From the NCBI GenBank assembly GCA_049975025.1, contig JBNGDU010000113.1:1-40956 (forward strand): 40,956 nucleotides of DNA, in the 5' to 3' direction. A model generated the notes under the pieces. It saw nothing but the letters and a program-made list of their open reading frames with translations. It was not told the origin of the DNA and made no database searches. Below, in pieces: positions 6,725 to 16,310 of this stretch (position 1 is its first letter; each line of letters begins with the position of its first letter). The DNA comes from Anaerolineae bacterium (GTDB lineage: Bacteria; Chloroflexota; Anaerolineae; B4-G1; SLSP01). The translations under genes and the position numbers were made by a program.

Positions 6725-6828
6725 TATGTGTGTTGCGCCTGTCGTGGTCAGATCGTGGGGCTTGCGATAGCGCCTTCTACACAGTGTACAAAGCTAAGCA
6801 ATGTAGCATCGCAATGCGAGGAGAGGCA

Positions 6829-8505
6829 ATGAACCGTCGAATATGTTGGTTGTCCGCATCTGTCCTGCTGCTCTCAATTCTATTGGGCGCGTGTCAAACC
6901 GGTGGACTTCTGCCGGTTGGCAAGAAGGTCGTCGTCACGATCTACTATGGTTCCGAGAAGCGGGCGTGGCTGGAGCCCCTCGTCGAGGAATACAATGCGC
7001 AGAAGAACAAGACCGAGGCGGGATCGACCATCGTGATTGAGGCGGTGCCGATGGGATCCATAGAGTCCGGTGATGCCATCGTCGAGGAACGCATCCAGCC
7101 TACAGTTTGGAGCCCGGCATCCTCGGCCTATGTGCCTGTTGCCAACGCCAATTGGGTCGACAAACACGGCGAGGCTCTGGTCGTGGGCACGTCGAATGAC
7201 CTTGTCCTCAGCCCGGTCGTCATCGCGATGTGGAAGCCGATGGCCGAGGCTCTTGGCTGGCCCGACGAGTCCATAGGTTGGTCGGACATCGCGGAGCTGG
7301 CGGTCTCCGATGAGGGATGGGCGGGCTACGGCTATCCGGAGTGGGGTACGTTCAAGTTCGGCCATACCGCGCCCAACCGTAGCAACAGTGGGATCATATC
7401 CGTGATCGCAGAGGCCTACGCCGGCGCAGGGAAGCAGCGCGACTTGACGATGACGGATCTCCAGGATGAGGACGTGAAGTCCTTTATGAGCACGGTTGAG
7501 AGCGCTATTATCCACTACGGGTCGAGCACGGGTTTCTTCGCGACCCGCATGTTCGAGCGAGGCCCCTCGTATCTCAGCGCCGCGGTGATGTACGAGAATC
7601 TCGTGGCGGCTCAGGAGGCCAAGAGGTTGAGTGGTGAGAGCTCGCAGTTGCCTGTCGTCGCCATCTACCCCAAAGAGGGCACCTTCTGGAGCAACCATCC
7701 TTACATTACCCTCAATGCGCCCTGGGTGACCGACGAGCAGCGAGAGGCCGCGGGGATGTTTGAGGAGTTCTTGCTAGCCGAGCCTCAGCAACTCCGGTCG
7801 ATCGAGTACGGTTTCCGGCCCGCCGATCCGGCGGTGCCGTTGACCTCCCCCCTGGACCTGCGGCATGGCGTCGATCCGCAGCAGCCTCAGACGGTGTTGG
7901 AGGTGCCCTCCGCTGAGGTCGTTGAGGGTATCCTGGACCTCTGGCGGCGCGAGGCCAAGAAGCCGGTGGATCTTGTCGTCGTGATGGATGTCTCCGGCAG
8001 TATGGAAGGGGAGAAGATCAACTCGGCGCGCAGCAGCCTAATTGAGTTTATCAATCTGCTCGATGATCGCGATCGCCTGCAGATCATCCTCTTCAGCGAT
8101 GAACTTATCACGTTGACCCCCTTATCACGGCTAGGGGATAAGCGGGAGGACGTCCTGCGTCGTGTGTCCGGTGTCATAGAGGGCGGGGACACCCGCCTCT
8201 ACGATGCGATTCAGATGGCTTACGACGAGCTGCAGCAAGAGGGGGATCGCGATCACATCCGCGCGATCGTGGCTTTGACCGACGGCAACGACACCGCATC
8301 CACGCTTGGCCTCGACGCGCTGATCGACAGCGTCGGCGATCTCAGTGAGGGGGGGAACGCCACGAAGGTCTTCACCATCGCCTTCGGCAACAATGCGGAC
8401 GAGGGAATACTGGAACAGATCGCTGAAGTCACCGGTGCCAAGCAGTATGAAAGTGATCCCGACACCATTCGCAGTGTCTACGCAGATATCGCGACCTTCT
8501 TCTGA
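6829..8505 (+). CDS. lipoprotein with SBP-like domain fused to a von Willebrand factor A (vWA) domain
   Basis: The ATG at 6829 is preceded by gaggagagg. Signal plus lipobox LLSILLGAC. SBP-like region with KFGHTAPNRSNSG. vWA MIDAS DVSGSM and TDGNDT. The ORF-track start at 6730 is judged spurious. Confidence 0.75.
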   Translation: MNRRICWLSASVLLLSILLGACQTGGLLPVGKKVVVTIYYGSEKRAWLEPLVEEYNAQKNKTEAGSTIVIEAVPMGSIESGDAIVEERIQPTVWSPASSAYVPVANANWVDKHGEALVVGTSNDLVLSPVVIAMWKPMAEALGWPDESIGWSDIAELAVSDEGWAGYGYPEWGTFKFGHTAPNRSNSGIISVIAEAYAGAGKQRDLTMTDLQDEDVKSFMSTVESAIIHYGSSTGFFATRMFERGPSYLSAAVMYENLVAAQEAKRLSGESSQLPVVAIYPKEGTFWSNHPYITLNAPWVTDEQREAAGMFEEFLLAEPQQLRSIEYGFRPADPAVPLTSPLDLRHGVDPQQPQTVLEVPSAEVVEGILDLWRREAKKPVDLVVVMDVSGSMEGEKINSARSSLIEFINLLDDRDRLQIILFSDELITLTPLSRLGDKREDVLRRVSGVIEGGDTRLYDAIQMAYDELQQEGDRDHIRAIVALTDGNDTASTLGLDALIDSVGDLSEGGNATKVFTIAFGNNADEGILEQIAEVTGAKQYESDPDTIRSVYADIATFF

Positions 8506-8600: not shown

Positions 8601-9320
8601 ATGCGTTCACCATTTCTGACGGCGCTGATCCATCCGCTCAATATTCTGATGATCGGACTGGCGGTTTTTGCCGGGCTCATCTCGGCCTGGTGGCTCTTCC
8701 CAGTGGGGATCGTTTTCTGGATCATTATGGTGGTGACGGTCTCTCGGGACCGGGCCTTGCGCTTCAACGCCCAGATGCAGCGTCGTGAGCCATTGGCCCA
8801 GCGTTTCCAGCGTTACTTTGACCGCATCGAGCGTGCACAGGTGAGTATCTTCAACACGTTGGCTGCCGCGCCACCCCGCACGCGCCGAGCTCTGGAGCCC
8901 ATCCAGGGCGAGGTTGATCGCCTGACCCGTGAGACCTACGCGCTCTGTCAGAGGATGACCTCCTTGGAGAACTACCGGATCGTCTCCCAGTCCCAGACCG
9001 ACCTATCTAGCGACCTGGACCATATCAATCAGCTCATCGAGCAGACCGAGGATCCACAACTGCGACAGGATTACATAGAGTCACGCCAGGCTCTCCAGGA
9101 GCGATTGGCAAAGCTGGATGGCGTGGGAACGCAACTGGATCGCGTGGAGGCCCAGCTACTCAGCCTGGCGAACGAGATGGACGGCGTGGTTACGGAGATC
9201 GTACGGTTACAAGCTGCCGGCCCGGAGAACGCCGAGACCTTTGTGCCAGAGATCGTTAAGCGACTGCAGCAGGAGTCGGAGCAGTTGTGTGTCTTTGAGC
9301 AGCAAGCTGTAAGACTCTGA
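8601..9320 (+). CDS. hypothetical membrane protein (two N-terminal TM helices plus long coiled-coil domain)
   Basis: 239 aa. TM segments LNILMIGLAVFAGLISAWWLF and VGIVFWIIMVVTV. The remainder is heptad-like and Q/E/R/L-rich. SD ggagtgagag precedes the ATG. Confidence 0.55.
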   Translation: MRSPFLTALIHPLNILMIGLAVFAGLISAWWLFPVGIVFWIIMVVTVSRDRALRFNAQMQRREPLAQRFQRYFDRIERAQVSIFNTLAAAPPRTRRALEPIQGEVDRLTRETYALCQRMTSLENYRIVSQSQTDLSSDLDHINQLIEQTEDPQLRQDYIESRQALQERLAKLDGVGTQLDRVEAQLLSLANEMDGVVTEIVRLQAAGPENAETFVPEIVKRLQQESEQLCVFEQQAVRL

Positions 9321-9383
9321 GTTGGCTGGTGCGGGGAGTGTGAGATCTGCTGAGGGGGTCTAGGTTTGGAATCGCGGGCGGAT

Positions 9384-10091
9384 ATGAGCGAGAGAATACT
9401 GGTGGTTGAGGACGATCTCGTGTTGCGTGAGACACTCGAGTATCGGCTCTCTGGCGAGGGCTACGAGGTTTCAATCGCAGGAGATGGGTATCAGGCGTTG
9501 GATGCAGCCCAGCAAGACAGGCCGGACCTGATTCTTCTGGATGTCATGTTGCCAGGCATCGACGGTCTCGAGGTCTGCCGAATCTTGAGGCAAGAGATGA
9601 CGATGCCCATTCTGATGCTCACTGCCCGCACCGACGAGGTGGATCGGGTGGTGGGGCTGGAGATCGGCGCTGATGACTACATCACGAAGCCATTCAGCAT
9701 GCGCGAGCTCCTGGCGCGCATCAAAGCCCAGCTCCGGCGCGTTCGGATCCTCACTGAGGAGATCGATGCCGGTTTACCGCCTGTGGCTTCAGAGCCCTTG
9801 CGCTTCGATGACCTCGTGATCGATCTGAACCGGTGTGAGGTGAGTCTCCGAGACGAGGTGCTACAACTGAAACCGAAGGAGTTTGAGTTACTCGCTTCGC
9901 TGGCGCGCCGCAAGGGACAGGTGCTCTCCCGCGATCAGTTGCTCAAGGCCGTTTGGGGTTGGGAACAGTCTGGACAGAGCCGCACGGTGGACGTTCACAT
10001 CCGATGGTTGCGGGAGAAGATCGAGGAGGACCCCGGAAATCCCCGCCGGATCATCACCGTCCGTGGTATGGGATACCGATTTGATGGATAG
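9384..10091 (+). CDS. orphan OmpR/PhoB-family response regulator, paralog of 1420-2127
   Basis: [43 protein letters not shown]. Roughly two-thirds identical by eye to the first regulator. No adjacent kinase. Sits directly upstream of the pst operon. The ORF track starts at a TTG at 9366. Confidence 0.9.
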
Positions 10092-10244: not shown

Positions 10245-11915
10245 ATGCGTCGTGTATGGTTGAGTCTCATGATTCTGGTGGCGCTTTTGGTCACCGCCTG
10301 CAGTGGAGGGCAACCCGCCGCAGCACCGACAGCCACACCCGCGGCTGCGGAGCCGGAGGCTACGGAAGCGCCGACCGAGGAGCCGATGGACGATCCGTCT
10401 GGTGAAGACCAGATCAGCATCGCCGGTTCGACGACGGTGCAGCCTGTGGCGGAGAAGGTCGGTGAGGCTTTCTCCGAGATGACGGGTGTGAAGGTGGACG
10501 TCGCGGGCGGTGGTTCGAGCTCGGGCGTCAAGGCGGCCGGCGACGGCACCGCCGACATCGGCAACGCGTCGCGTGACATCAAGGACTCCGAGTTGGAGAC
10601 CTATCCCGAGCTGGTGATCCACACGATCGCCAAGGACGGTATCGCCATCGTGTCGCACCCCGAGGGCACGGTCGACGAACTGACGACGGACCAGGTGCGC
10701 GACATCTTCGCTGGTGTCATCACCGACTGGAGCGAGGTTGGTGGCGAGAATGTGCCCATCACGGTGATCAGCCGTGAGGAGGGGTCGGGCACGCGGGGGG
10801 CGTTCGAAGAGATGGTGATGGGCGAGGACGCGGCGATTACGGACAGCGCGATCTTCCAGGACAGCAACGGCAAGGTGCGCACGGCTGTGGCCAGCACGCC
10901 GAACTCCATCGCGTTCCTCTCGTTCGGTTACCTGGACAACAGCGTCCTGGCGATCTCAATCGACGGCGTCGAGCCCACGGTGGAGAACGCGGTCAACGGT
11001 TCGTACCCCGTCGTGCGCCCGCTGAACATGGTGACGCTGGGCGAGCCCGAGGGCGCCGTCAAGGACTTCCTCGACTTCGTGATGTCGCCCGACGGTCAGG
11101 CGATTGTCGTGGACGAGGGGTTCATCGCCGTGGTCGAGGGTATGGGTGAGGAATCCGCTTCCGAACCACCCGCAGAGGGCCAGGGCCAGATCAGCATCGC
11201 CGGTTCGACGACGGTGCAGCCTGTGGCGGAGAAGGTCGGTGAGGCTTTCTCCGAGATGACGGGTGTGAAGGTGGACGTCGCGGGCGGTGGTTCGAGCTCG
11301 GGCGTCAAGGCGGCCGGCGACGGCACCGCCGACATCGGCAACGCGTCGCGTGACATCAAGGACTCCGAGTTGGAGACCTATCCCGAGCTGGTGATCCACA
11401 CGATCGCCAAGGACGGTATCGCCATCGTGTCGCACCCCGAGGGCACGGTCGACGAACTGACGACGGACCAGGTGCGCGACATCTTCGCTGGTGTCATCAC
11501 CGACTGGAGCGAGGTTGGTGGCGAGAATGTGCCCATCACGGTGATCAGCCGTGAGGAGGGGTCGGGCACGCGGGGGGCGTTCGAAGAGATGGTGATGGGC
11601 GAGGACGCGGCGATTACGGACAGCGCGATCTTCCAGGACAGCAACGGCAAGGTGCGCACGGCTGTGGCCAGCACGCCGAACTCCATCGCGTTCCTCTCGT
11701 TCGGTTACCTGGACAACAGCGTCCTGGCGATCTCAATCGACGGCGTCGAGCCCACGGTGGAGAACGCGGTCAACGGTTCGTACCCCGTCGTGCGCCCGCT
11801 GAACATGGTGACGCTGGGCGAGCCCGAGGGCGCCGTCAAGGACTTCCTCGACTTCGTGATGTCGCCCGACGGTCAGGCGATTGTCGTGGACGAGGGGTTC
11901 ATCGCGGTCAAGTAG
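10245..11915 (+). CDS. pstS: phosphate ABC transporter substrate-binding lipoprotein, tandem two-domain PstS
   Basis: Lipobox LLVTAC. Two identical PBP_like_2-type units, each with GSTTV, GGGSSSG, NASRD and EGSGTRG motifs. Strong SD aggagg at 10231-10236. Confidence 0.9.
   Translation: MRRVWLSLMILVALLVTACSGGQPAAAPTATPAAAEPEATEAPTEEPMDDPSGEDQISIAGSTTVQPVAEKVGEAFSEMTGVKVDVAGGGSSSGVKAAGDGTADIGNASRDIKDSELETYPELVIHTIAKDGIAIVSHPEGTVDELTTDQVRDIFAGVITDWSEVGGENVPITVISREEGSGTRGAFEEMVMGEDAAITDSAIFQDSNGKVRTAVASTPNSIAFLSFGYLDNSVLAISIDGVEPTVENAVNGSYPVVRPLNMVTLGEPEGAVKDFLDFVMSPDGQAIVVDEGFIAVVEGMGEESASEPPAEGQGQISIAGSTTVQPVAEKVGEAFSEMTGVKVDVAGGGSSSGVKAAGDGTADIGNASRDIKDSELETYPELVIHTIAKDGIAIVSHPEGTVDELTTDQVRDIFAGVITDWSEVGGENVPITVISREEGSGTRGAFEEMVMGEDAAITDSAIFQDSNGKVRTAVASTPNSIAFLSFGYLDNSVLAISIDGVEPTVENAVNGSYPVVRPLNMVTLGEPEGAVKDFLDFVMSPDGQAIVVDEGFIAVK
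10409..11905. repeat. perfect 720-bp direct tandem repeat (10409-11128 and 11186-11905, period 777 bp) inside pstS
   Basis: Base-by-base reading of both copies found no mismatch. They are separated by a 57-bp unique linker encoding VVEGMGEESASEPPAEGQG. Confidence 0.95.
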
Positions 11916-11968
11916 CGCGCGGAATCAGTCGGCGATCAGCTTGTTCAGTTGATTCAGGCATTCAGGCG

Positions 11969-12015
11969 AGGAGTAAGGAGTTGGCCACGCGCTACTTCTT
12001 ACTCCTTGCTTCTTG
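11969..12015 (+). terminator. intercistronic hairpin between pstS and pstC (partial terminator or processing/stability element)
   Basis: aggagtaag (11969-11977) pairs with cttactcct (11998-12006) around a 20-nt loop, followed by the T-rich tgcttcttg. Confidence 0.45.
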
Positions 12016-12028
12016 AAGGGAGGTAGGT

Positions 12029-12940
12029 ATGAGGCTGGCAGACATCACGGATCAAGTTGTGCGGTACGCTCTGCTGATTGCCGCGTTGCTTTCGGTCATC
12101 ATCTTGATCCTGATTGGGATTTTCACGCTCATTGAGTCTTGGGATGCATTTTCGCGAATCGGGGTCCTTGATCTTATCTTCGGCACGACGTGGCATCCTA
12201 TCCCCGATGATTTCGAGGCCAGCGAGTTTGGCATCCTTGGTATGATCTTCGCCTCGATCATCGTGACGGCTGGGGCGCTCGTGCTAGGCGTTCCGTTGGG
12301 CGTAGGCTGTGCGATCTTCCTGGCGGAGGTCGCGCCCGAAACTGTCCACAAGATCGTGCGCCCGGCGGTCGAGCTCCTGGCCGGTATCCCATCAGTGATC
12401 TACGGCTTGATCGGTATGGTCTGGTTAGTCCCGGTGATCCGCGATTTGATCCCAGTGGCTGGCAACCAAGGGTTCGGCTTCTTGGCAGCCTCCATCGTGC
12501 TGGCCGTGATGATCTTGCCGACGGTGATCAACATCGCCGAGGACGCGATTCGCGCAGTACCGCGCGAATATCGTGAAGGGTCGTTGGCCCTGGGAAGCAC
12601 CAAGTGGCAGACGATCACCAAGGTGATCGTGCCTGCCGCCCGGTCCGGCATCATTGCGGCCATCATCTTAGGGGTTGGGCGTGCATTGGGTGAGACTATG
12701 GCCATGGTTATGGTGATCGGGAACTCTACTCAATTTCCCTCGCCGCTCACGGCCAACCCGTTGACGATCTTTTTGAGCCGCGGACGTACCCTCACCGGCA
12801 ACGTTGTGATGGGTCTTAACTACGCTGCGGGCACGCACCGGAGCGCGCTCTTCGCGACGGGTATTGTGCTCTTCGTCATGATCATGATCGTTAACAGCAT
12901 GGCACGGCTCATCATCAGTCGTTGGTCACCCAAGAACTAG
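12029..12940 (+). CDS. pstC: phosphate ABC transporter permease PstC
   Basis: 303 aa, multi-TM. EAA-like loop AEDAIRAVPREYREGSLALGSTKWQTI. Operon position after pstS. Confidence 0.9.
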   Translation: MRLADITDQVVRYALLIAALLSVIILILIGIFTLIESWDAFSRIGVLDLIFGTTWHPIPDDFEASEFGILGMIFASIIVTAGALVLGVPLGVGCAIFLAEVAPETVHKIVRPAVELLAGIPSVIYGLIGMVWLVPVIRDLIPVAGNQGFGFLAASIVLAVMILPTVINIAEDAIRAVPREYREGSLALGSTKWQTITKVIVPAARSGIIAAIILGVGRALGETMAMVMVIGNSTQFPSPLTANPLTIFLSRGRTLTGNVVMGLNYAAGTHRSALFATGIVLFVMIMIVNSMARLIISRWSPKN

Positions 12941-12954
12941 AGGGGCGAGACACT

Positions 12955-14736
12955 ATGAATGCAGTGCGTGAGATGTCTTTGGAGCGAACAGAAGAGCAGG
13001 TCAAAGCGAACCTGAAGCGCCGCCGCGCTGTGGAGAAGGGTGCTTTTGGGATGCTGTGGCTCACGGGCGGCGTCGTGATCGTGGTGCTTTTCTTCGTGAT
13101 CGTCTATTTGCTGATTCAAAGCGGCAAGTTCTTCGTCGGCGACGAGGACCTGCTGGAGGACGCCGTTATGCTGGAATCCAACGCCGAGATCGCCGAGATG
13201 GTGGCGAGCGATCCGAATGCGATTGGCTATCTGTCACTGAGCTGTCTGGACGGGTCCGTCAAGCCTATCGTTCTGAACGGGGTGATGCCTTCGGTTGAAA
13301 TGGTTGGCGAGGGTTGGTATCCTATCGTGCAGGATCTCCACATGATGACACATGGGGAGATGACGCCGGTCACTGAGGCCTGGTTTGCGTTTGCCGTGAG
13401 CGAGGAAGGACAGGCCGTTGTGGCTGAAGCCGGATACGTCCCGGTGCCAAGTTCGGACTCCTATCGACCTTCGTCCGAACTCAGCGGAGAGCTCTCCATC
13501 GCCGGGTCAACCACGATGCAGTGCTTGGCTGAGAATCTGGCGGCAGCCTTCAACACCTACCATCCGGATGTGTCGATCACCATTGAGATCGAAGACTCCA
13601 CCAGCGGCATCAAGGACGCCGGCAAGGATAACGTCGACGTCGGCATGAGTTCGCGCGAGATTCGTGACTACGAATTCGTCCGTTACGATGGTCTCGTGGC
13701 GCATACTGTGGCTCAGGACGGCATTGCCATTGTCACCAACCCGCAGAACCCGGTGGGCGGCCTCACGATCAACCAGGCTCGCGACCTATTTACCGGCGTT
13801 ATCGCCAACTGGCAAGACGTTGGTGGCAATGATGCGACCGTCACGGTCGTCTCCCGTGAGCTGGGCACCGGCTCCTGGGACGGCTTCGAGAAGTGGGTCT
13901 TGAGCAAGAACGCGATGATGGCGAAAGGGTTGGATTCTGGGAACTTCCGGCTCTTCCTCCAGAATCTGTGGGCCAGCGTCAAGTTCATCTGGCGCTTCTT
14001 GACGACGCGTCCGTTGCCGGGCATGGGCGGCCACGGCGGTATCTCCACGACGATCATCACGACCGTCTACATGGTCGTTCTCACCCTTGTGATCGCGACG
14101 CCTTTGGGCGTGGGGGCTGCCATCTATCTGGTCGAGTACGCCGGTGAGATGAGCGGCAAGCAGAGCGGCTTGCTGAATAAGGTCGTCACGGTGATCCGCT
14201 TCGCCGTTGAGACGCTGGCCGGCGTGCCCTCGATCATCTACGGGCTCTTTGGCTTCGCTTTCTTCGTCACGGCGATCCGGTTGGGGCTCTCGATGATCGC
14301 GGGAGCTTTTGCCGGTGCGTGTCTTATCCTGCCGGTCATCATCCGCACGACGGAAGAGGCTCTGCTGACCGTGCCCCGCAGCTATCGCGAGGGCAGCCTG
14401 GCACTGGGCGCCACGAAGTGGCAGACGAACTATCAAGTGGTCCTGCCGGCTGCACTGCCCGGCATCGTTACGGGCATCATCTTGGGCGTCGGTCGTATCA
14501 TCAGTGAGACGGCGGTCTTCTACGTGACGTTGGGTGGTAGCATCAATATGCCTGAGTCTATTATGGACCAGGGACGGACCATGGTGCTGCATCTCTACTC
14601 CTTGATGATGGATGCGAATGCCCCGGATCCCGCGATGGGGACCGCGATTGTGATCATCTTCGTGATCGTGTTGATAAACCTGGCGATTAACTACTTCTCC
14701 AACCGGCTCTCTATGAGTCTGAGTGGGAAGTCCTAA
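12955..14736 (+). CDS. pstA: phosphate ABC transporter permease PstA carrying a ~270-aa PstS-like (PBP) domain in the TM1-TM2 loop
   Basis: The ATG at 12955 follows agagggg. TM1 LWLTGGVVIVVLFFVIVYLLI. An inserted PBP-like region spans 13129-13941. The canonical PstA core follows (TEEALLTVPRSYREGSLALGATKWQT). The ORF-track TTG at 12922 overlaps pstC. Confidence 0.85.
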   Translation: MNAVREMSLERTEEQVKANLKRRRAVEKGAFGMLWLTGGVVIVVLFFVIVYLLIQSGKFFVGDEDLLEDAVMLESNAEIAEMVASDPNAIGYLSLSCLDGSVKPIVLNGVMPSVEMVGEGWYPIVQDLHMMTHGEMTPVTEAWFAFAVSEEGQAVVAEAGYVPVPSSDSYRPSSELSGELSIAGSTTMQCLAENLAAAFNTYHPDVSITIEIEDSTSGIKDAGKDNVDVGMSSREIRDYEFVRYDGLVAHTVAQDGIAIVTNPQNPVGGLTINQARDLFTGVIANWQDVGGNDATVTVVSRELGTGSWDGFEKWVLSKNAMMAKGLDSGNFRLFLQNLWASVKFIWRFLTTRPLPGMGGHGGISTTIITTVYMVVLTLVIATPLGVGAAIYLVEYAGEMSGKQSGLLNKVVTVIRFAVETLAGVPSIIYGLFGFAFFVTAIRLGLSMIAGAFAGACLILPVIIRTTEEALLTVPRSYREGSLALGATKWQTNYQVVLPAALPGIVTGIILGVGRIISETAVFYVTLGGSINMPESIMDQGRTMVLHLYSLMMDANAPDPAMGTAIVIIFVIVLINLAINYFSNRLSMSLSGKS

Positions 14737-14760: not shown

Positions 14761-15534
14761 ATGACAGCTTCTGAGATCAAACTTGAGGTTCAAGGATATA
14801 ACCTCTATTACGGTTCGTTCAAGGCGCTGGAGGATATCGCCGTTCAGATTCCGGCGCGGCAGGTGACAGCGATCATCGGCCCATCCGGATGTGGTAAGAG
14901 CTCCTTCTTGAGGACCTTTAACCGGATGAATGACTTGATTCCGGTTGCCCACGCCAACGGCGAGGTGATGATGGATGGCGACGATATTTTCTCAATGGAT
15001 GTCGTTGATCTGCGCCGCCGTGTAGGTATGGTCTTTCAACGTGCCAATCCATTCCCGAAGTCGATCTTCGACAACGTGGCGTATGGCCCGCGAGCCGGCG
15101 GAGTACGGGACCGCAACAAGCTCAACGGGATCGTGGAGCGTAGCCTTCGCGGCGCAGCTGTCTGGGATGAGGTCAAGGATGATCTAGGCAAGTCCGGGTT
15201 GGCGCTCTCCGGCGGTCAGCAGCAACGTCTCTGTATCGCCCGCGCGCTAGCGGTTGAACCCGAAGTCATCCTGATGGACGAGCCCGCCTCGGCACTCGAC
15301 CCCATCGCCACGCTGAAGATCGAGGAACTGATCCGCGAGCTCAAAGAGGAATACACGATCGTCATTGTCACCCACAACATGCAGCAGGCAGCCCGTGTCT
15401 CGGACTTCACGGCCTTCTTCTACACTGATGAGAGTCGAACCGGACAACTTGTCGAGTTCGGTCCGACCAAGAAGATCTTCACCAACCCCGATGATGAGCG
15501 GACGGAAGATTACATCACAGGGCGCTTTGGGTAG
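14761..15534 (+). CDS. pstB: phosphate ABC transporter ATP-binding protein PstB
   Basis: Walker [10 protein letters not shown], signature LSGGQQQRL, Walker B ILMDEP, C-terminal YITGRFG. Confidence 0.95.
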
Positions 15535-15647: not shown

Positions 15648-16310
15648 GTGATCACGAAACCTAGAGAGACGTTCCGCCGTGAATTGGGGCAGTTGCTCGA
15701 CCAGGTCTTGGCGTTGGGCAGTATGGTCGAGGACGCGATATTGGTCTCGGTAGCGATGTTGAAGAAGCGGGATATCGAGGGATCCCGTCGCATCATCGAA
15801 CGTGATCAGGAGATCAATGCGAAGCGATTTGAGATTGAGGATCAAGCGCTTGCGCTCATCGCCCTGCATCAGCCTGTGGCGAGGGATCTGCGGCTTCTCG
15901 GCGCGATCTTGGAGGTAGCCACCGAGCTCGAGCGTATTGGCGATTATGCCAAGGGGATCGCCAAGGTCAACGTCCTGATGGGAGATGCACCGCTGCTCAA
16001 GCCACTGATTGACATACCTTTCATGGCGGGGAAAGCGATGGACATGCTCCGTCAGAGCTTGGACGCTTTCGTGTCACGGGATATCCAGGCGGCTCAGACC
16101 ATCCCCGCGCTGGATGATGAGGTGGACGCACTCTACAATCAGGTCTACCGTGAGCTGATCACCTACATACTGGACGATCCGCGATGTATTGAGCAGGCCA
16201 ATCACCTCCTCTGGGTCGCGCACAATCTGGAGCGGGCGGCGGACCGCGTTTCCAATGTCTGTGAGAGGACGATTTTCATGGTGACGGGGAAGATGCAGGA
16301 ATTGAACTGA
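15648..16310 (+). CDS. phoU: phosphate signalling complex protein PhoU
   Basis: 220 aa with a GTG start. Two PhoU repeats with E(L)ERIGDYA and NLERAADRVSN motifs. Lies downstream of pstB. Confidence 0.9.
   Translation: MITKPRETFRRELGQLLDQVLALGSMVEDAILVSVAMLKKRDIEGSRRIIERDQEINAKRFEIEDQALALIALHQPVARDLRLLGAILEVATELERIGDYAKGIAKVNVLMGDAPLLKPLIDIPFMAGKAMDMLRQSLDAFVSRDIQAAQTIPALDDEVDALYNQVYRELITYILDDPRCIEQANHLLWVAHNLERAADRVSNVCERTIFMVTGKMQELN

Follow-up and report, generated by a model that had tools for sequence, protein, structure and literature searches.

Concerted evolution appears to keep two tandem phosphate-binding domains alike within one gene, pstS, of an Anaerolineae bacterium. The gene lies in a stretch of 40,956 nucleotides (contig JBNGDU010000113.1; the whole stretch is referred to below as the window) and heads an operon for phosphate uptake. 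Its two 720-bp domain copies do not differ at a single base, and we consider it likely that we are looking at a real, recently homogenised two-domain gene whose copies are kept alike by recombination. A PstS with two or three domains is the typical architecture of the clade and is not new to this gene. The base-perfect copy pair may be one snapshot of a clade-wide process, slightly idealised by assembly, and this process and its link to circularly permuted forms of the same domain are of more interest than the base-perfect duplication itself.

The open reading frame (ORF) of pstS (10245..11915, + strand) codes for 556 amino acids, and the two copies are not separated by a stop codon. Base comparison within the window gave 720 equal bases out of 720 between positions 10409-11128 and 11186-11905, with a match that extends 0 bases beyond either end of the copies. 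The period of the repeat is 777 bp, and the 57-bp linker between the copies (11129-11185) is found nowhere else in the window and shows no significant likeness either to the tether upstream of domain 1 or to the DNA after the stop codon; its best match to either is 8 nt long and on the opposite strand. There is no N in the whole window. The sole other direct repeat of at least 40 nt in the window is a 47-nt match of 77% between two response-regulator genes, and therefore the 720-bp repeat is far beyond chance. The N-terminus of the protein, MRRVWLSLMILVALLVTAC, consists of a signal peptide with a lipobox (Cys19) and a tether rich in Pro, Ala, Glu, and Thr (amino acids 20 to 55). The original prediction, made from the letters of the DNA, had described base-identical copies with a 777-bp period and a 57-bp unique linker, lying in one continuous frame behind a single signal peptide and lipobox and giving two complete PstS domains. 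Base comparison, repeat mapping, the 556-residue ORF, and the domain searches bore this out, and the prediction was also right that zero divergence needs a special explanation.

By sequence, both domains are ordinary representatives of the PstS family defined by TIGR02136/PF12849. The protein scored 311 bits against PF12849 (PBP_like_2) and 495.2 bits against TIGR02136 (ptsS_2), in two stretches each, and thus passed the curated threshold of the latter family (206.6 bits). Residues 2 to 238 of the 240-residue copy align to the solved phosphate-binding proteins 4q8r and 4gd5 (E = 2e-53), in agreement with a complete type-II binding-protein fold. The motifs AGSTT, GGGSS.G, and REEGSGTR are invariant in the family alignment and are kept in the window domains. 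Furthermore, G61, S62, T64, G88-S92, and R177-R184, which we take to be the phosphate ligand contacts, are invariant in both halves of alignment A1. In an AlphaFold2 model built on an alignment of 30 sequences, both domains were confidently folded, with a mean predicted local distance difference test score (pLDDT) mostly of 85 to 96 in blocks of 10 residues. The tether (residues 18 to 53) and the linker (residues 300 to 312) had a pLDDT below 50, and the predicted template modelling score of the whole protein was 0.47, which suggests that the domains have no fixed mutual orientation and are arranged like beads on a string.

Age of the tandem layout and its spread among relatives

The nearest orthologue, P0061, is encoded on a 1179-bp contig of the Joint Genome Institute (L166; sample 3300037504), and its domain has 93% protein identity to the window domain. 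L166 aligns to window positions 10873-12019 in one single high-scoring segment pair (HSP; 86.6%) that starts at the end of domain 1, takes in the linker and domain 2, and continues past the stop codon into a conserved intergenic region. In this one contig, the linker is also 57 nt long and in the same position; its first 24 nt are identical to the window linker at 19 of 24 positions, and 29 of all 57 positions agree. A linker of the same length that is partly conserved, together with the colinear HSP, argues that the duplication is older than the split between the window and L166 and that the order domain-linker-domain was in place before it.

The two lineages have since diverged considerably. 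Between the window domain and domain 2 of L166, 78 of 717 nt differ, with a synonymous divergence (dS) of 0.43 and a nonsynonymous divergence (dN) of 0.039. Copies that had been independent since before the split should differ by at least as much, yet the window copies differ at 0 of 720 positions. Over the 243 nt in which both copies of L166 can be compared, there are 14 sites where the two L166 copies have one base in common and the two window copies another. Between the L166 copies themselves, 17 sites differ, all of them past nt 113 (dS 0.22). Positions 1-127 of L166 recur exactly at 775-901, 774 nt downstream. The start of this contig looks like a k-mer-limited break at an exact interdomain repeat, which implies that an exact repeat is present in the sister species, too, within the upstream portion of the domain.

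To see whether related pstS genes are single or double had been suggested as a check. All of the 120 best homologues in a collection of 5.8 billion proteins are multi-domain, 82 with two and 38 with three PstS domains; the ranking favours such proteins, since scores sum over domains. Where a source is named, the best homologues come from Anaerolineae, Chloroflexota, or similar. Anaerolineae metagenome-assembled genomes (MAGs) also carry single-domain PstS. In a scan of GTDB species representatives, the matches listed were mostly single-domain, and only L001, L002, L004, L005, and L079 among them were multi-domain, a scan that gives no reliable frequency of architectures. Among the 150 best representatives in a library clustered at 50% identity, 33 gave multiple domain matches. 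Some 14 of the 33 have two or more full-length domains, with 30 to 94% identity between domains, and the rest are fragments or circularly permuted forms. Multi-domain PstS is also present on contigs of 5.7, 3.6, and 2.1 Mb.

The closest full-length relative (protein P0001, locus L158) has a three-domain PstS and the same gene order as the window: a solute-binding protein fused to a VWA domain (SBP-VWA), a 239-residue protein, a response regulator, pstS, pstC, pstA with an inserted phosphate-binding protein domain, pstB, and phoU. A change between two and three domains is also seen between the close relatives P0026 and P0057, P0028 and P0060, and P0004 and P0065. At another locus, L013, positions 978-2825 hold two overlapping ORFs in different frames with one PstS domain each; these are probably the pieces of a two-domain pstS that a frameshift or faulty assembly has split. 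A protein identical to the window PstS is on record once (MGC9346913.1, from a single contig of 40,956 bp). An exact look-up of the protein in the contig index gave no match, and the metagenome scan gave no contig of the same species (best match, 75%).

Concerted evolution and its alternatives

The pattern in the window recurs throughout the family. Domains of the same protein are 72 to 100% identical at the protein level, while lineages differ by up to 40 to 50%. The domains of P0009 share 88 to 94% with each other vs 62% with the nearest other protein; the corresponding values are 83 to 94% vs 50% for P0038 and 100% vs 69% for P0068. A test for positional correspondence covered 78 complete two-domain proteins. 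Among proteins at least 85% identical, same-position domain identity exceeded cross-position identity in 75 to 100% of the pairs. Among proteins less than 80% identical, the signal between first and first or second and second domains was gone (mean difference, 0.1 to 0.3 points), while identity within a protein was still 85 to 91% and lay above identity between proteins in 100% of the pairs. The time to homogenisation can be read from these data, as the correspondence of equivalent domains is lost below ~80% protein identity.

At the DNA level, dS between sister domains spans 0 to ~1.05 at low dN/dS. Several loci in this set of domain pairs were picked for 100% protein identity, and the protein-level set of 78 is less biased. 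Such a range of dS with low dN/dS shows that all domain copies are under purifying selection and that their likeness reflects more than protein-level constraint. The copies of L160 are identical at 741 of 741 nt, those of L161 differ at one position and those of L165 at two; between domains 2 and 3, L164 has 6 nt differences (dN 0) and L159, on the 5.7-Mb contig, has 98.1% identity. The differences between copies are often mosaic: L079 has an exact run of 612 nt, with all of its 28 differences falling within the first 90 or the last 30 nt, and in L159 and L162 the differences are distributed in patches. In the window, the identity tract covers the entire homologous region, and a mosaic is not visible there. 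Paralogous copies are thus more alike than orthologous ones, synonymous sites included (0/720 vs 78/717). Taken together, the family pattern is one of concerted evolution, by gene conversion or unequal crossing-over, the two of which are not separable here; the sequences point to recurrent homologous recombination between the repeats as the putative mechanism. Ongoing gene conversion had been one of three explanations offered at the outset, and it is the one that the family-wide pattern supports.

In our model, the two-domain layout is old, and the copies would be homogenised by homologous recombination between the 720-bp direct repeats, either as non-crossover gene conversion or as unequal crossing-over that shifts the copy number among one, two, and three. 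The last homogenising event would be too recent for any difference to have arisen, with a tract that would comprise the whole homologous stretch. Two 720-bp direct repeats with a spacer of just 57 bp are expected to recombine readily; the multi-domain state must therefore be upheld by selection, and variants with one or three domains may occur within populations. The cell is presumed to have no periplasm. The lipid-anchored PstS would expose two independent phosphate-binding domains on flexible spacers rich in acidic residues and proline, serving the adjacent PstCAB, and the benefit may lie in a doubled number of phosphate capture sites per anchored, exported molecule near PstCAB. A second specificity is impossible because the two domains are identical, and the gain would be one of dosage or avidity and not of specificity range. 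It is conceivable that copy number is tuned by recombination in response to phosphate supply.

The strongest alternative is that the tandem is real but its perfect identity, its copy number of two, or both are partly products of short-read assembly, which we think unlikely. The window is apparently a whole MAG contig, the break of L166 at the exact 127-nt repeat shows that such repeats defeat assemblers, and the contigs of several relatives end inside the repeat or a domain. The nearest full-length relative has three domains, and contigs that look long-read by size or name have 86 to 99% identity between copies, never 100%. On the other hand, the linker junction is kept in an independent assembly (L166) and the join is therefore natural, and near-identity of 98 to 99% is found on contig_1 (5.7 Mb) and contig_9638. 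At least 99% amino acid identity between domains is found in 8 of the 78 complete two-domain homologues (median, 89%), and ~6 of 78 would be expected if homogenisation times were exponentially distributed with a mean divergence of ~12% (estimated); by this rough reckoning, an artefact is not needed. Furthermore, a third copy with a different linker would leave a branch in the assembly graph and not a clean contig. Of the assembly artefact offered in the original prediction, the part that concerns the tandem junction does not stand, while the part that concerns 100% identity and two vs three copies keeps some probability.

Several further points weigh against our model as a whole. The literal 100% identity and the exact copy number of two are readings of one assembly. 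Where copies are nearly identical, bubble popping in a de Bruijn assembler may have removed a few positions at which they truly differ, and a simple loop may have been walked only once, which would hide a third copy that has the same linker. The relatives examined that reach 99.7 to 100% identity (L160, L161, and L165) look short-read, as judged by naming style only, and contigs that look long-read by size or name peak at 98.1 to 99.2% (L159 and L164). If the domain had been duplicated independently many times, distant lineages would show similar identity statistics, and the direct argument from linker homology comes from the window/L166 pair only, with L166 being a fragment of 1179 bp. The permutation test for mosaicism treats constraint as uniform along the domain; constraint varies, and the test is only indicative. 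Finally, the literature searched holds no biochemical data on any multi-domain PstS.

That a single-domain pstS was duplicated in tandem de novo and very recently in this lineage, with the linker made at the junction, is very improbable. The 0 differences over 720 bp would agree with it, recent gains from two to three domains do appear to occur (domains 2 and 3 of P0028 share 100% protein identity, with 6 nt differences), and single-domain PstS exist in Anaerolineae MAGs. However, the junction of a simple tandem duplication consists of flanking sequence, with what follows the unit joined to what precedes it. The repeat match ends abruptly and the linker is unlike both tether and downstream DNA; therefore, a simple fresh duplication is geometrically excluded. 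Moreover, L166, at a dS of 0.43, already has domain, linker, and domain, its 57-nt linker shows homology in the 5′ part, and the multi-domain architecture is common to all close relatives recovered. The suggestion that a very recent duplication created the two-domain PstS did not survive this comparison, as the layout predates the split from L166 and multi-domain proteins are the rule among the best homologues. Old, independent copies held identical by purifying selection on the protein alone, an idea to which the low dN/dS between copies throughout the family would lend itself, have a negligible probability and were rejected, since the ~175 synonymous sites among the 720 nt are also identical, compared with a dS of 0.43 to the orthologue. 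A chimeric join of single-domain genes from two strains was rejected as well, since the linker is conserved in L166.

Circular permutation and operon context

The tandem PstS has a counterpart in the neighbouring permease gene. Amino acids 74 to 356 of PstA align with amino acids 195 to 484 of PstS in one colinear HSP of 291 columns (38% identity; E = 4e-59), and this part of PstS comprises the latter half of domain 1 and the initial half of domain 2 with the linker between them. The insert in PstA is thus a complete PstS domain in circularly permuted order, exactly as a tandem truncated at both ends would give. The earlier remark that the tandem is the intermediate required for circular permutation is supported by this alignment across the tandem junction. 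Permuted inserts in PstA were also found in L158 (9575-11737), L082 (2474-4658), L084 (3582-5757), and L091 (7754-9803). The insert is kept in the closer relatives and absent from the distant multi-domain operons L159, L160, and L162-L164.

Permuted PstS domains also exist as stand-alone lipoproteins of ~280 to 320 amino acids, found outside the window in the representative library (P0143, P0163, P0187, P0219, P0244, and P0247). In these proteins, a signal peptide with lipobox is followed by positions ~106 to 239 of the domain, a linker, and positions 2 to 110. The linker mostly carries a G-L-S/T/K-G motif (GLSG, GLTG, or GLKG) of the interdomain type, and the free forms look like tandem PstS truncated at both ends. 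Tandem arrays, PstA insert, and free permuted lipoproteins would then be natural intermediates of the classical route to circular permutation, duplication followed by truncation. We tentatively propose, as a possibility somewhat short of an even chance, that the pst operons of Anaerolineae are a natural, still-active series of permutation by duplication, in which arrays of two to three PstS domains may be kept competent for recombination by concerted evolution. If this is true, the identical tandem is both a dosage device and an evolutionary source of permuted forms.

Directly upstream of pstS lies a gene for a PhoB-type response regulator, and pstC, pstA, pstB, and phoU follow downstream. The coordinates are given in Table 1.

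Table 1. Features of pstS and the pst operon in the window
Feature	Position	Strand	Basis
PhoB/OmpR-type response regulator directly upstream of pstS	9366..10091	+	Response_reg and Trans_reg_C; same position in L158
pstS gene, two complete phosphate-binding domains in one lipoprotein	10245..11915	+	ORF; two PBP_like_2 stretches; TIGR02136; 100% match to NCBI MGC9346913.1
Signal peptide with lipobox (LVTAC, Cys19)	10245..10301	+	Translation; predicted N-terminal helix 2-18
Pro/Ala/Glu/Thr-rich tether from lipid anchor to domain 1	10302..10408	+	Translation; pLDDT <50 at residues 18-53
Repeat copy 1, PstS domain 1 (Q56-A295)	10409..11128	+	720/720 equal to copy 2; full-length alignment to PDB PstS structures
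Unique 57-bp interdomain linker, VVEGMGEESASEPPAEGQG, predicted disordered	11129..11185	+	No flank match; likeness to L166 linker; pLDDT <50 at residues 300-312
Repeat copy 2, PstS domain 2 (Q315-A554)	11186..11905	+	Identity to copy 1
Strong hairpin between pstS and pstC, kept in L166	core 11964..12011	+	Intergenic fold; L166 stem
pstC permease	12029..12940	+	BPD_transp_1
pstA permease with circularly permuted PstS domain (N-terminal extracytoplasmic part)	12922..14736	+	TIGR00974 PstA and TIGR02136
pstB ATPase	14761..15534	+	ABC_tran
phoU	15648..16310	+	Two PhoU stretches

The hairpin region between pstS and pstC (11954-12016) folds as a whole with −44.5 kcal/mol (z = −2.9). L166 keeps the stem 3′ of the stop codon, with one compensatory change from C-G to U-A and one change from G-U to G-C (by eye). 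The hairpin may be an mRNA-stabilising or attenuating stem that raises the output of PstS over PstCAB.

Further upstream, window positions 6730-8505 (+ strand) code for a lipoprotein-like protein with an SBP_bac_11 solute-binding domain fused to a VWA domain, and positions 8601-9320 (+ strand) code for a 239-residue membrane/coiled-coil protein without a family match above the Pfam threshold. This pair lies upstream of the response regulator and the pst operon in both the window and L158 (2663-4342 and 4393-5112). The 47-nt direct repeat (1426-1472 vs 9390-9436; 77%) falls on the starts of two apparent OmpR-family response-regulator genes, which suggests paralogous regulators within one 40-kb window. 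PstC is unusually long in three of the more distant operons with three- or two-domain PstS, with 454 to 464 amino acids vs ~300 in the window (L159, 8609-9991; L160, 7815-9209; L163, 5633-6997), and PstA is of normal length in these operons.

Comparison with known systems

Tandem, duplicated, or multi-domain PstS was not described in the literature searched, and databases hold hundreds of multi-domain proteins annotated simply as PstS. Short-read MAGs likely mis-assemble or break such pstS genes, and domain counts taken from them, as well as inferences on phosphate uptake built on such counts, should be treated with care. The closest known systems are the single-domain PstS lipoproteins (4q8r, 4gd5, and 4exl), to which the window domain aligns end to end, with the same motifs and the same pstSCAB-phoU operon. 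Unlike these, the window PstS has two domains (three in relatives) behind one lipid anchor, joined by disordered acidic and proline-rich linkers.

Substrate-binding domains (SBDs) in series are known from GlnPQ of Lactococcus lactis, in which two SBDs are connected by a short flexible linker and bind their ligands largely independently; both form one chain with the transmembrane domain, and their specificities and affinities are not the same (PMC8025302). The pst system resembles GlnPQ in having at least two SBDs in one polypeptide and an SBD fused to a membrane subunit, the insert of PstA. In contrast to GlnPQ, the tandem SBDs of the window lie in an ORF of their own, which codes for a lipoprotein with a signal peptide and lipobox; PstA carries no more than one SBD, the permuted one. 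Furthermore, the SBDs of the window are identical in sequence and therefore do not differ in specificity or affinity, and the substrate family is phosphate. Tandem SBDs have been studied mainly in amino acid importers such as GlnPQ, with differing domains; here, they are two or three, near-identical, and clade-wide.

In Periscope proteins, near-identical DNA repeats encode folded domains, intragenic recombination is proposed to gain and lose repeats, and long reads are needed for reliable repeat counts (PMC8201768). The number of PstS repeats also varies, being two or three between close relatives, and only two to three copies were seen in the PstS set, in comparison with the Periscope repeats. 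Unlike the Periscope stalk, which projects a distal binding domain, the PstS repeats are themselves predicted to bind the ligand, are joined by disordered linkers, and carry no distal domain. According to work cited in PMC8201768, neighbouring domains of high identity are generally disfavoured because they are liable to misfold. The PstS tandem runs against the expectation, as cited there, that neighbouring domains diverge to avoid misfolding. It is imaginable that the long acidic and proline-rich linkers lower the risk of misfolding for identical neighbours.

Concerted evolution by gene conversion is a familiar feature of duplicated bacterial genes such as tufA/tufB and the rRNA operons. As in these, PstS paralogues within a genome are more alike than orthologues, also at synonymous sites. 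Unlike tufA and tufB, the paralogous units of PstS are adjacent domains in one ORF, 57 bp apart, and the PstS family thus offers a clean bacterial example of concerted evolution acting on neighbouring domains within a single reading frame.

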